NCBI GenBank assembly: GCA_051294375.1
Contig: CM119266.1
Location: forward strand, 6,837,431-6,901,430
Direction of reading: 5' to 3'
Origin: Paraspadella gotoi
Taxonomy: Eukaryota > Animalia > Chaetognatha
DNA length: 64,000 nt
How positions within the stretch are numbered: position 1 is the stretch's first letter; each line of letters begins with the position of its first letter. The notes under the pieces were generated by a model. That model ran no database searches. It had not been told where the DNA came from and saw only the letters and a list, made by a program, of their open reading frames with translations. This document shows, one piece after another, positions 26,301-63,880 of this stretch. The position numbers were made by a program, and so were the translations under genes.

Positions 26301-29300
26301 GAAGTGTGATATTGGATTCACATTGATTTCTTTCCCCTCTCATCTCTCTCCCCAGCGATCGACGTCTGCAGCGAACTTCGCAGCAAGTCGCCCGTCCACA
26401 TCCTCAACCACTCCCTCGGGTCCCTCTGCCACGACCCCCGTTGGGCGGCATTGTCGGGCGACTCCAACGCCACCATCGCCAGCCCGATCTCTTTCGATCC
26501 CGCCTCCGGAAGTTTCATCGTCAACGAAGCCATGGAAGACCACGGGGTCGGAAATTTCTTTTGCGAATTCCCTTCCTGTAGATGCCCAGTGACCGTGCCG
26601 TTCCGGCTGCGGCCTTGCAGAGGAAAGTGGCGTTCGAAGAGGGGCACCGTGTCTACTTTGCCCGAGAAGAGGGTCGAGGTGAACGAGGGCAAAACGGGCC
26701 TCTTGTTTTTGGCGTCGGTGACCACGTTGTCCAATCCGCGATATCGATTCAAGACGGAACAAGAGAAATTTCTCATCGACGAAATCTCTGGATTCGTGTC
26801 GCTGAAACAAGGACAGATTCTTGACTACGATGAGGGTCCCAAACAATACACGATGACGGTCGTCGCCGAGAGCAAACCGGGTGAGTTTTTAATGGTAGGG
26901 TCAAAGCGGTTGGTCGGGTGAGGTAAAAATTAAGGGGCTGCAAAGCTTAGTTAAATCTTATATCTATAGGTTTATTATCACCAATGAAGGCGAATTCATT
27001 CTTTTATATTAGTTTAAAAAATTAATAAACTTTTAAAATTAAGTAAGTATATTATAAATACATTAGAAAACATTTGTTCCGTGCGTTCACTTGCATTTGA
27101 AAAAATCCTGGATAGAAATAATTTGTCTGTTCTCTTCTAACTAAAAGTAAATTATAATACTGCTATAAATGTTATGATGTATCATTTTAGCGAGAAACAA
27201 TAAAAAAAATCATCTTTATTCTTATGCATCATACATATGTAAATGTAATTTGATAATATATGCTAGTTTCTCCTGCTAAGATGAAACATCTTCTCTTAAA
27301 TTAGTTAATGTTATTTTATCGTTGATTCACTAAAAAACGAAACAAAAAACCGTTTTTTTGGTGTCGCGGATAAAATTCACACTTTTATTTGTTTTTTCAC
27401 ATCGCTTTTCCCTTCCCACCCATAATCCTTGCCAACGTTTTCACCATCATTACAACATCACCATTATTACAACTTCGTTACCATCATCATCATCATCATT
27501 ATCATCATCTTCATCACCATCGTTACCCTGATCTTCATTATCTCCAGGGAGATCAAAGAGACAAACGATTAGCCGTCAGGGTTCCGTTCGCTCCGGTAGC
27601 TCCAGTAGCTCAAGTAGCTCTAGTAGCTCCAGTGGTTCCGGCGGAGGGGGGAGTAGTAGCGGCGGCAGCAGCAGTGGCAGCCGAAGAATCAGTAGCGGGG
27701 GCAGCAGAACCAGCAGCGGTGGTAGCCGAAGCAGTAGCAGCAGCAGTGGCAGCCGAAGCAGCAGCAGCAGCAGCGCAGCGGAGGCAGCCGAAGCAGCAGC
27801 AGCAGCAAGCGGAGGCAGGCCGAAGCAGCAGCAGCAGCGGAGGCAGCCGAGGCAGGCAGTAGTAAGCAGCAGCAGTAGTAGCAGTAGCGGCAGTTTCAGT
27901 AGCGGGTCATCAAGTGAGTTTACTTTCGTGTTTTTTTTTTTTGAAAAAACACATTTAAAAAAAACTTCAAATACAAGCTTATAATACGAGCTTATAACGA
28001 TGCTTCTCGTGCGATTTTGTTCATAAAAATGCTTTTTATAAATTTTCAAATATACAAACATGAACTTAATTATTGACGATAAAAATAGGTCAATTATAGG
28101 TGTCTGTTTACAAGTACAACTATTTTCATTTGGTGCCAAACACATCTGAAATCATAGTTGGGATTTGAGACACCTTAATGTGCTTAAATATAAGTTATCA
28201 TAGCTAAAACATTTTATCTTTTTTTTTTTAACTATTTTTTTGATTCGTTCATGATGTATATATGTAAATTATAAACGACTAATAAGTTAATAACCATATA
28301 AAGTAAAGACTCTCCCAACTTCTCACTGCTTTATTGGTGGCTTTTTTTGCCTTTAACAAAAACTCGTTTTGCTTTCACTCACGAACGTAAAGCGGGCAGC
28401 GGTGGCCGGACGTACGGACAGAGCGGAGGAGGGGGTTCGTCGGGGTACGGACAGGGGTCAGGGGGATCCTCGGGGTATCGGACGGGAGCAGGAGGAGGAG
28501 GAGGGAGGAGGAGGAGGAGGAGGTGGAGGGGATATGGGGATCTAGTGGAGGAGGAGGAGGTGGAGGAGGAGGTGAATGGGGGATCTAGTGGAGGAGGAGG
28601 AGGAGGAGGAAGAGAGCAGGCGGGTCTAGATCCGGATCAGGTATCAAAATCAGGCGTCCCTCGGTCTGAAACTGCTGGTTTTTCGTCCAAAATATCTTTT
28701 TAAAATTTTTTGTTAATATTTTGTATTTAAACTTATGAATATGTGATAGTTATATAGTGCAATTAAATTAAAAGTATAGTACTTGTTGAGTCTTCAACGA
28801 AACTTATCCTTTTTTGTAGTCAGACATAATAAATCATAAATAAGTAGACATAATTTTAAAACTAATTTTGGGCTAAACGGCGTCTCAGACCTCATCATTA
28901 CCTAATCTGGTCTCTAGAAACAGTTTGGAACAGCAACAACAACAACAACAATATTTTATTTTTAAAATGAGTTCAGCAGCACTGATGGTGATGCGGGTAC
29001 ACAGTCCATAATCTCCTTCCAAATTGACAACAACAACCAAATTAACTCTCTTCGCAGAATTAACTTCTAACGCTTTTTTTTTTATTTTTGGTGTTTTGGG
29101 AGTTTAACAATTTTGTGATCCCCTCGCTCCACTTATCAAAACCGCTTATTTACCCGTCAATGTTCAATGTTTTCGTAGGTAGCTCCAGTAGCTCCTCCAA
29201 AGTGTCAATTTCTACTTCGCGTCGTTATGGTACTTAACTTTATACAAAAACACTTTTTTTGTTTTCTCTCTTCCGCGACTAAAAACAAAAAAAAAAACAA

Positions 29301-32300
29301 CAACAAAGCAATTTAAAACGAGATGTTTATTTTCGTAATTGGAAAAAATCGAAATTTTCATCGGTTTAAGTTGTTACCAGCCAATGGAATCATTGTTTAT
29401 TTTACTAATTTTGATACATTTTCAAACCTTATCTTTTGGCGTTAATTGGTGGGTATAGTACTTGGGCGTCTAATAACTTTAATAACACTAGTAATGATAT
29501 TAAAACAATTGCCAAAAAAACCANNNNNNNNNNTTTTTGAGGGGATTCAATGTTTCAACCGTTTTACCTAAAACAAGTTTTTTTTTTTAATACGATTAAC
29601 TGGTGATTTTGTCTACAAATTCTTCGAATGTAATTAACACGTTCGCGTTTTTTTCCCGCCCTTTTTTGGTCTTGACCTCCTCTTCCTCCTCCTTCTCTTC
29701 CTTCTCCTTCTCCTCCTCCTCTTTCTATTCCTTCTAATCCCGCCAACTCCCTCGTCGAAGACCCCACCGCCCAAGGGGACGTCGTGGAGCAGCCCTTCTT
29801 GATGATCCTCAAGGATGTCAACGACGAGATCCCGCAATTCAAATCCGCTTGGAAGCCTTTCACCGCGGTCCTCCAAAACCCGGATGCGGGGGAAGGAACG
29901 TTGGTCTACAAGTTCGTCGCCGTCGACCCGGACACGGCGTCCAGGCTCAAGTTTAACCTCGAATTGGGTCAGTTTGTTTGAAGGGGTTGGATTTTTGGCT
30001 CTGTTCGCCCAGAGCACCCCATTTCTTTGATTTTATCCTTTTTTTTACTGGATTTGTTTAGGGGTTTGGGGTGTTTGGTTTTATCGTGATGACTTAGAAA
30101 TGGAGGGTTCTCTTTGGATAACGCGATTAGAACGGTTTATTATTGTACTCTAGGCTGTGATTGCTAATAATAAATTTATAACGTTAAAAATGGTATGATA
30201 TCAGGAGATAAATTCATGAGTCATAATTTGACCAATTGCAAGATTCATTTCTCCGTCCGTCCTTACATTCATCCATCCATCAATCTATTTCCCCGACTCA
30301 GCCGATCCAAAAGACCGTTTCCGCGTGGACCAATGGACCGGCGCCGTCACCACCAAGGGGCGGCGACCGTTCACGGTCGGTCAGACCCATAGGATTCGCG
30401 TCTCCGTCCAAGATATTAACGCTCCCAAGACGCAAAAATCCGCCGCCGAGGATCTCTTCATTCACATCGGAAAGAGGGCGCCTCAGTTTCAACAAGTGAG
30501 CAATTCAATTCCTAAAGCTGTGGGTCTTTTTTATAGGGAACAGAGGGTTGCTGATAAGAAGGGTAACATTCTTTTTGCATCATGCATATGAAATTAAAGA
30601 AAGTGTAGGTTTATGAAAATTGTGTGAAAACATTGAAAAGTAATTCTAAAAACGTTGGATTGTCTCTATGTTCTTTTGTTTTTATCATTTTTCAATTATG
30701 CTAGTATTGTTTGTATGTTTCTCACTTAAATTCTTATTGGTATACTTTTTTGGTACTTTTCAGACGTAAATGGTTGGGAAGATTGCATAGACGTAGAAAA
30801 TTTTGTATACTTGCAATCAAATAAAAGTATTTTAACCTAAAATGTATTTAATTATAATTATTGCCATCTTATTTTGTAAATAAGATGCTATAAATTTGTT
30901 TTAGTTTGTATAAATGTCCACTAACTTATCTTGAATTTTTAACATCCAAAAAAAAAATTTCAGATGGTAAGCAAAATTTTATAATTATGTCTAACTAACT
31001 GCGATTTAAGAATCTCAAGCTGCTTGGAGGTGAATTGATGATTATGGTCCGTGTTTCTTTAAAAATATGTGGAGAATACATGAATAAACAAAATTTTTAA
31101 GTATTTTGTTTAATTCATTCAAAAAAATAAATTTTTAGGGCATCTTTTTTGGTGTAAGGCTTAAAATTAGTAAAATTGCCTGTTAATACCCACTAAAAGT
31201 GTTAACTTGCTTTCTTAACAAAAAATTAAAACCTAATCTATTGTACCCTTTTCTCAAATTTTTTTAAAGCTTGTAAGTATTTTTGTTTTAATAGATCATT
31301 TTTGTTGCTTATATTTAAATCTTTATGCTTTTTTTATTGTGATAAAAAACCGCAAACTTAATTATATATTTTTTCTCTATGTTTATTGTAATTGAATGTA
31401 TTAAAATACTGCCATATCAACCTACTACCTAGTACATATTGTATGTATTTGCTTCTAGGGTTAATCTCAGACGTTTAAAATTTTTGTATATAGTAATTAC
31501 ATGTGTATAACAAATTAAAATTTAGTGAGTAATGTTTAGATTGGTATGATGTAAGTGTAAATCAATGATTAACAGGATGAATTCGGTAAATTTCTAGAAA
31601 AGAGAAAGCAAAAAAAAATTTTCATTATCAAATTTTCAAATTTCCCTTAAATTTGTGTCTTCAACGAATCATTAGTTTTCTCTCTCCCTCATCGATTTCC
31701 TTTCCCTTAACGGAGGGAGGGAACACCCACTACGGTTCCGCCTCCACCAGTTTCACTAGCTCCAGTAGCTCTAGTTCCACAAATAGCTTCGGCTCCAGTG
31801 GATATAGCGGCGGCAGGGAACCAGCGGTTTCCTCTTCAAACTCTTTGGTACCAAAAAAAAAAATCCAAACACTGGAAAAAATTTTTCCGATTCTGAATGC
31901 GACTGTTTTTCCCCTCGATTTATACTCGTAACAACGACAAACTATTGTTAAAAAACTAATGCATTAGTTGCAGTAATTCTTTTTGTGGAACCGAATGCCG
32001 AAATTTCCCCTACATGCCTGCCTAGTGAAGTAGCGCATAATCAAAGAAAAATAACGCCGTCTTTAACGTAGTATATATCTCTCGACCGAAGCTGCATTGA
32101 CGTAAATGGTCGAATTGTTAACCGAGGGAATTTTGGTTAACAATTGGATTACATTTCGAAATGTATCTATGGCCACCGTGTGCTCTTTCTTTTGATTGTG
32201 CCCCTGTCTTATAACATTATACCACGGCCTGCAAATTTAATTGTCATGATATATTGAATGTAAGAAAATTGAAATTATATCAACAATTTTCTTTTTTACG

Positions 32301-63868: not shown

Positions 63869-63880
63869 GGGGTGACGACG
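63869..63880 (+). other. Candidate 12-nt microexon (GGDD)
   Basis: ttgtgcag|GGGGTGACGACG|gtaagg, phase 1-1 after the FDGSK exon. Confidence 0.55.

Follow-up and report, generated by a model that had tools for sequence, protein, structure and literature searches.

Microexons, candidate microexons and Ser/Gly-rich cassettes in a DN-cadherin-like gene of Paraspadella gotoi

Described systems and the locus

Classical cadherins are usually thought to vary through gene choice or, in arthropods, through three exon pairs. In the schistosome micro-exon genes (MEGs), the coding region is built mainly of short symmetric microexons, which can be skipped without a frameshift. The present analysis concerns a DN-cadherin-like gene on the forward strand of a 64,000-nucleotide stretch of the chaetognath Paraspadella gotoi (NCBI GenBank assembly GCA_051294375.1, contig CM119266.1, positions 6,837,431 to 6,901,430; the whole stretch is called the window), and 12 short units of 3 to 30 nucleotides (nt), all located within introns of that gene, whose lengths are multiples of three (3n).

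N-cadherin of arthropods carries three pairs of mutually exclusive exons; its micro exon 7a', 12 nt long in insects, is always tied to exon 7a (excerpts of PMC2655722). Type III classical cadherins have 14-17 extracellular cadherin (EC) repeats and mature DN-cadherin has 15 (PMC5473995 and PMC8325961, in part); EC1-EC11 are the adhesive unit of DN-cadherin, and its EC2-EC3 linker is kinked (PMC8325961, same portion). The ectodomain mini-exons meA-D of LAR-RPTP (PTPRD/PTPRS/PTPRF) set ligand binding, according to passages of PMC8711739. The motif definition of neural microexons dependent on eMIC (SRRM3/4, Srrm234) is a UGC near the acceptor, an extended AG-free zone and a UC-rich tract, according to sections of bioRxiv 10.1101/2021.02.24.432780.

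Since arthropod N-cadherin already contains micro exon 7a', microexons are not new to type III cadherins, a precedent missed by the initial annotation of this DNA, which did not know such a design from classical cadherins. The gene described here is real and unusually microexon-rich. No description of a multi-microexon classical cadherin came up in literature searches confined to open-access papers; supplementary microexon tables could hold more cadherin cases.

Splicing of the optional pieces and the unit set against chance

The locus is probably a DN-cadherin-like gene with real microexons and Ser/Gly cassettes, in which most of the other 3n units would be minor or tissue-restricted exons and the insertions would tune the ectodomain. 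Exon status was observed for three pieces, to which regulation and function are added by inference. All units named by the initial annotation were recovered (12/12), each with AG upstream and GTRAG downstream, as were its larger symmetric cassettes of 366, 51, 132 and 60 nt. The 16 optional pieces were as follows.

27548..27913 (+), 366-nt Ser/Gly-rich cassette, EC1 (putative F-G loop); RNA joints 26880>27548 (depth 177) and 27913>29179 (depth 128)
29179..29229 (+), 51-nt Ser-rich cassette, EC1; joined in RNA at either end (29229>29761, depth 232)
30964..30966 (+), 3-nt microexon encoding Met (ATG), shortly behind the EC2-EC3 linker; RNA joint 30495>32428, depth 214
31139..31153 (+), 15-nt candidate microexon (GIFFG), ATG-exon intron; acceptor rule passed; absent from the main contig
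31270..31272 (+), 3-nt candidate microexon (L), ATG-exon intron; acceptor rule passed with an AAG acceptor; absent from the main contig
31716..31847 (+), 132-nt Ser/Gly-rich candidate cassette, ATG-exon intron; open in frame, weak GAG acceptor; absent from the main contig
33296..33298 (+), 3-nt candidate microexon that would add G, close to the C-terminal loop of EC3; acceptor rule passed
47571..47600 (+), 30-nt candidate microexon, EC6; apparently copied, with divergence, from the donor and final 10 codons of exon 46877-47090
48925..48933 (+), 9-nt candidate microexon (DTQ), EC7; acceptor rule passed; closest, among 31 donors, to the end of the following exon
53532..53591 (+), 60-nt candidate cassette, or 27 nt if an inner donor is used, EC10; open in frame
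54105..54113 (+), 9-nt candidate microexon, EC10 after the DxD motif; acceptor rule passed
54365..54373 (+), 9-nt candidate microexon, EC10 after the DxD motif; acceptor rule passed
58841..58870 (+), 30-nt candidate microexon, EC12 start; fails the AG-exclusion rule, passes a pyrimidine rule; skipped in the main contig
61252..61266 (+), 15-nt candidate microexon, the weakest, EC13 end; acceptor rule passed; skipped in the main contig
62465..62470 (+), 6-nt candidate microexon, EC15; acceptor rule passed; skipped in the main contig
63869..63880 (+), 12-nt probable microexon, after EC15; two short contigs diverge behind 63365

The RNA data were the contigs of one public run, judged to be RNA from its spliced joints and from exon depth (~315, vs. 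~3 in introns, at 57500-64000). The comparison covered 26300-32720 and 57500-64000, with 7/12 units inside. Because rare variants are lost from contigs, a unit that the main contig lacks may still be spliced in, and contig depth is an unreliable gauge. Among the 7 covered units, 1 was spliced in, 1 was probably so and 5 were not seen. The joints at 26300-32720 were 26880>27548, 27913>29179, 29229>29761, 29967>30302 and 30495>32428, the last with two letters between. These joints establish three pieces as real exons: the 366- and 51-nt cassettes and the ATG microexon. Intron contig depth was ~19-24 where optional exons are hosted and 4 in 29968-30301, and was not used as evidence.

At the 30495>32428 joint, the two extra letters and a shared G spell ATG, and AG-ATG-GT occurs once in the host intron, at 30964-30966. 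This piece thus fits the definition of a true microexon (3-30 nt, spliced on both sides into mRNA). Relative to Drosophila N-cadherin (3UBH), the form that skips it is collinear and ATG adds one residue. The claim that all pieces are optional held for the reading frame. In the single run it did not find support for two of them: the one contig that spans the ATG junction includes ATG, and the listed joints comprise none that skips ATG or the 51-nt exon.

The 366-nt cassette brings a second RSKR site. About 85 depth units were unaccounted for at both of its flanks, with one joint dropped at repeats; this hints weakly at a form that skips the cassette. A 13-base word was found solely in the 132-nt candidate and the two RNA-confirmed cassettes. 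Between the latter, 28393-28640 (+) is a cassette-like Gly/Ser/Tyr-rich stretch of 248 nt, which shifts frame in GGA repeats, has an RNA depth of 4-10, and could be a misassembled or decayed exon.

The loose end behind 63365 comprised two contigs (median length 33, agreement 0.75). Its printed consensus was fully consistent with an overlay of "unit + next exon" on "next exon alone"; the consensus was decoded by hand, with an alphabetical tie-break rule that is itself deduced. Its composition was 13/10/6/1 A/C/G/T (12.4/9.7/6.7/1.2 expected for a two-form overlay), and full consistency occurred in 0.1% of 20,000 simulated unrelated pairs. Because the tie-break rule is deduced, the 12-nt unit at 63869-63880 is only probably both included and skipped.

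For the chance background, AG-N(1-30)-GTRAG was scanned over 32,446 intron bases. The acceptor rule (H-A-G, with AG absent from -23 to -4) was passed by 31/31 core acceptors. With this rule the sense strand gave 24 hits, 13 of them 3n and 11 non-3n. The 3n hits were 11/12 of the units (58841 fails), 53532-53558, and 27013-27042, which contains a stop. Stop-free 3n units numbered 12 with the rule, vs. a mean of 2.99 in 300 local dinucleotide shuffles (maximum 8; 0/300 reached 12) and 3 on the antisense strand. Because of these figures, about nine of the 12 are above chance and probably real, with two or three expected by chance.

Non-3n hits with the rule were not in clear excess (11 vs. a shuffle mean of 7.78; 49/300 reached 11). 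Their number exceeds the 2-3 comparable units that the initial annotation had noticed by eye. Seven of the 11 lay within the 7.8-kb intron that hosts a nested antisense gene, and 13/17 hits were 3n when that intron was left out post hoc. In a control region (1-22900, both strands) 2/15 hits were 3n. Six rules were tried, and the binomial p for the 3n share ranged from 0.54 (raw) to 0.019, so the 3n signal depends on demanding a plausible acceptor. In the ATG-exon intron, 31540-31550 is an 11-nt AG...GTAAG unit, non-3n and frame-shifting, which could be due to chance or be a decay-inducing exon.

GTAAG donors were present at 9/12 units and an AG-free stretch of 20 bases upstream at 11/12. GC content was 50% in the units vs. 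29% in their flanks. Units were borne by 6/6 introns of 0.9-2 kb and by the 636-base last intron, and by only 1/20 introns under 600 bases. No Rbfox-type TGCATG was found near the units.

Among 31 core donors, the best match to 47571-47600 was the upstream neighbour exon. The two share 5 of the last 6 residues, 3 of them via synonymous codon changes. As judged from sequence, origin by copying of an exon edge is supported for this unit and suggestive for 48925; no clear neighbour-exon match was found for the other units.

Host gene, placement of the pieces and neighbouring elements

Three-frame translations, read by hand, gave the exon model of the host gene.

23258..23390 (+), signal-peptide exon: ATG start and hydrophobic stretch; an RNA loose end before 26354 maps there; the frame stays open where it joins the core
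26356..63364 (+), 31 core exons, which encode a prodomain remnant, an RSKR furin-type site, 15 EC repeats and the start of the next domain

In agreement with the initial annotation, the core frame was complete without any unit (31 exons, 1732 aa in conceptual translation, no stop), and all within-intron combinations of the 16 optional pieces were stop-free. The pieces total 251 aa on a 1777-aa core, and the 12 units contribute 48 aa. RNA contained 10/10 core joints in 57500-64000, besides joint 29967>30302. The gene extends past the window end, after EC15.

Fifteen EC repeats lay C-terminal to the RSKR site in the repeat map, of which two printed rows hold two repeats each. Three consecutive exons were collinear with 3UBH, at 95-147 (best match, E 1.3e-5), 157-220 (E 0.0037) and 223-256 (E 0.34). 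The EC2-EC3 linker is KRAP in place of DxNDN, i.e. calcium-free as in DN-cadherin. Both the repeat number and the EC1-EC3 collinearity with DN-cadherin, including this linker, therefore agree with type III. Membership fits over the EC region seen and is likely rather than complete, because the NC, EGF and LamG parts of the type III order NC-CE1-LG1-CE2-LG2-CE3, the transmembrane segment and the catenin-binding cytoplasmic tail would lie beyond the window.

The 150 cadherins compared were mostly long multi-repeat proteins with 26-29% identity, and one protein fragment, from contigs <800 bases, was 69-75% identical. Homologue searches with two exons gave no match, and the search with that fragment returned only vertebrate-type cadherins (37%). 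The ESM Atlas search returned generic cadherin clusters only, and the metagenome scan a single unrelated locus (32%).

Placement of the pieces was taken from the repeat map, with loop names assigned from motifs. The 366- and 51-nt cassettes precede the last strand of EC1. ATG, the 15- and 3-nt units and the 132-nt cassette would all enter four residues past the calcium-free EC2-EC3 linker. EC10 takes the 60-, 9- and 9-nt pieces after its DxD motif, and the EC12 start, EC13 end, EC15 and EC15 boundary take one piece each. In total, 12/16 pieces fall in EC1-EC11.

Core splice sites included one GC-AG intron (49862) and five AAG acceptors (29760, 43932, 46876, 52459, 60815). Since AAG also serves as an acceptor in the core, it does not count against the two units that carry it. 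Core acceptor tracts were C-rich (46% C) and unit acceptors T/A-rich. EC12-EC15 (59942-63364) are unusually cysteine-rich for cadherin repeats, possibly with extra disulfides. An assembly gap with a duplicated exon end lies at 50370-50415, and the true donor is behind the second copy.

The nested antisense gene (37300-41500, minus strand) within the 7.8-kb cadherin intron shows a 703-aa coiled-coil open reading frame (ORF; 41475-39367). Alongside it are an ORF rich in Ala, Pro and Ser and a stretch that matches the inner nuclear membrane protein MAN1 in its C-terminal region (5ZOJ, E 2.6e-6). If these form a single gene, the long coiled coil would replace the usual MAN1 N-terminus. Clusters of tRNA-Phe(GAA) (three copies) and tRNA-Gly(TCC) (four copies), with degenerate copies, lie on the minus strand of two cadherin introns (35902-36378 and 55377-57415). 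A DUF229-family gene (13591-15477, minus strand; PF02995, E 4e-38) lies upstream of the cadherin start.

Weighing the readings and comparison with known systems

In the probable reading of real microexons and Ser/Gly cassettes, the units would insert 1-10 residues near EC-repeat loops and linkers. Certain pieces would enter the majority of transcripts and others would appear in just a minority of cells; inclusion may depend on tissue or stage, as it does for animal microexons elsewhere. Some units may have arisen via copying of an exon edge plus splice site. The insertions would tune bending, calcium linkers, processing or binding strength, and would not form a Dscam-like identity code.

Several observations weigh against this reading. 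Unfiltered sense hits were not enriched in 3n lengths (35/105 vs. 39/95 on the antisense strand), and the decisions to use the acceptor filter and to leave out the nested-gene intron both followed a first look. The RNA comes from a single run whose tissue mix is not on record. Units 33296, 47571, 48925, 54105 and 54365 and the 60-nt cassette lie outside the RNA comparison (32721-57499), and 31139-31153, 31270-31272, the 132-nt cassette, 58841-58870, 61252-61266 and 62465-62470 were absent from the main contigs. The simulated two-form overlay at the 12-nt unit had an agreement of 0.67 ± 0.04, vs. 0.75 printed. An eMIC-type UGC was present within 40 bases upstream at only 3/12 units. No orthologous locus in which unit conservation could be assessed turned up in the exon, fragment, ESM Atlas or metagenome searches.

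The initial annotation, which proposed a microexon and cassette system, had named a lack of junction reads together with a lack of 3n or sense-strand enrichment as the outcome that would speak against it. That outcome did not arise: the ATG, 366- and 51-nt joints and an excess of about nine units were found. The enrichment check failed on raw counts and succeeded with the acceptor rule. The proposal thus stands for the spliced ATG, 366- and 51-nt pieces, and probably for the 12-nt unit; it falls short for the 5/7 covered units absent from the main contig and for the two or three units likely due to chance.

That only a few pieces are true exons (ATG, 12-nt unit, Ser/Gly cassettes; near-constitutive or neutral), and that the rest are chance or decayed duplicated splice sites, is unlikely. 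The raw 3n share of 1/3, the two or three stop-free 3n units yielded by shuffles, the covered units not seen included, and the resemblance of some units to adjoining exon edges would all follow from it; so would 61252-61266, which would leave an intron of 60 nt where the shortest core intron has 169. However, the exhaustive scan gave 12 units vs. ~3 without a matching non-3n excess, neutral copies would show no preference for 3n length, and the loss of rare variants from contigs means that units missing from the main contig need not be absent.

A combinatorial adhesion code, in which the 16 pieces would be picked largely independently per cell to give many isoforms with different homophilic specificities, is quite unlikely. 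The stop-free combinations formally number 65,536, the pieces are concentrated in EC1-EC11 with two in EC6-EC7 near the DN-cadherin specificity region (PMC8325961, in part), and two pieces look alternative in the single run. Against this, one form was dominant, and a single 1699-base contig skipped three units together. The introns contained no duplicated EC-coding exon pairs, unlike DN-cadherin and Dscam, and DN-cadherin splice forms are without clear functional differences in vivo in the excerpts of PMC2655722. The code is a formal possibility only.

Recursive splicing or intron splitting, with the few bases of each unit normally spliced out again, is highly improbable as an explanation of the units: they do lie in longer introns with strong GTAAG donors at 9/12, but 0 zero-length AG/GTRAG sites occurred on the sense strand, ATG is retained in mRNA, removal gives no selection for 3n length, and the host introns are just ~1 kb.

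A bolder proposal, put forward tentatively and as rather doubtful, is that a dozen additive microexons plus Ser/Gly cassettes, distributed over the adhesive unit and chosen by cell type, give a classical cadherin of ancestral type an adhesion code without duplicated exons. Within EC1, the 366-nt cassette would supply another furin-type site together with a spacer that is rich in Ser and Gly and may be glycosylated, so that splicing would decide EC1 clipping.

If there are indeed about ten insert-type microexons besides the low-complexity cassettes, the gene would offer a natural series for probing how linker length and loops affect ectodomain bending and binding, with one insert four residues past the calcium-free EC2-EC3 hinge and two that split EC1. 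The locus also shows that 3-nt exons missed by annotation can be detected from raw sequence.

Compared with eMIC-dependent neural microexons, the units are alike in their 3-30 nt length, frame keeping and AG-free zone upstream, and differ in having a UGC near the acceptor at just 3/12 and a UCUC-rich tract only at 54105. With schistosome MEGs they share short symmetric exons that can be skipped without a frameshift. The gene is not of the MEG type, since its microexons are add-ons to a complete conserved core (251 aa optional vs. 1777 aa).

As in LAR-RPTP, which has two in tandem at one site, several frame-keeping microexons or candidates occur in an adhesion-type ectodomain. LAR-RPTP differs in its Ig/FN3 ectodomain, heterophilic ligands, four sites and demonstrated binding effects, whereas the present case is a cadherin with more sites and a candidate function.

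As far as the gene is visible, its protein is of the CadN type (15 EC repeats past a basic processing site, 3UBH-collinear), and it also resembles CadN in having a microexon and in probable alternative splicing within the ectodomain. A tblastn search of the core and two cadherins against all introns found only the assembly duplication at 50370-50415 and no duplicated EC exons, and no mutually exclusive exon array of the Dscam/CadN type was present in the window. In place of CadN's exon pairs, the present gene would have up to 12 additive microexons at 9 introns, together with Ser/Gly cassettes.

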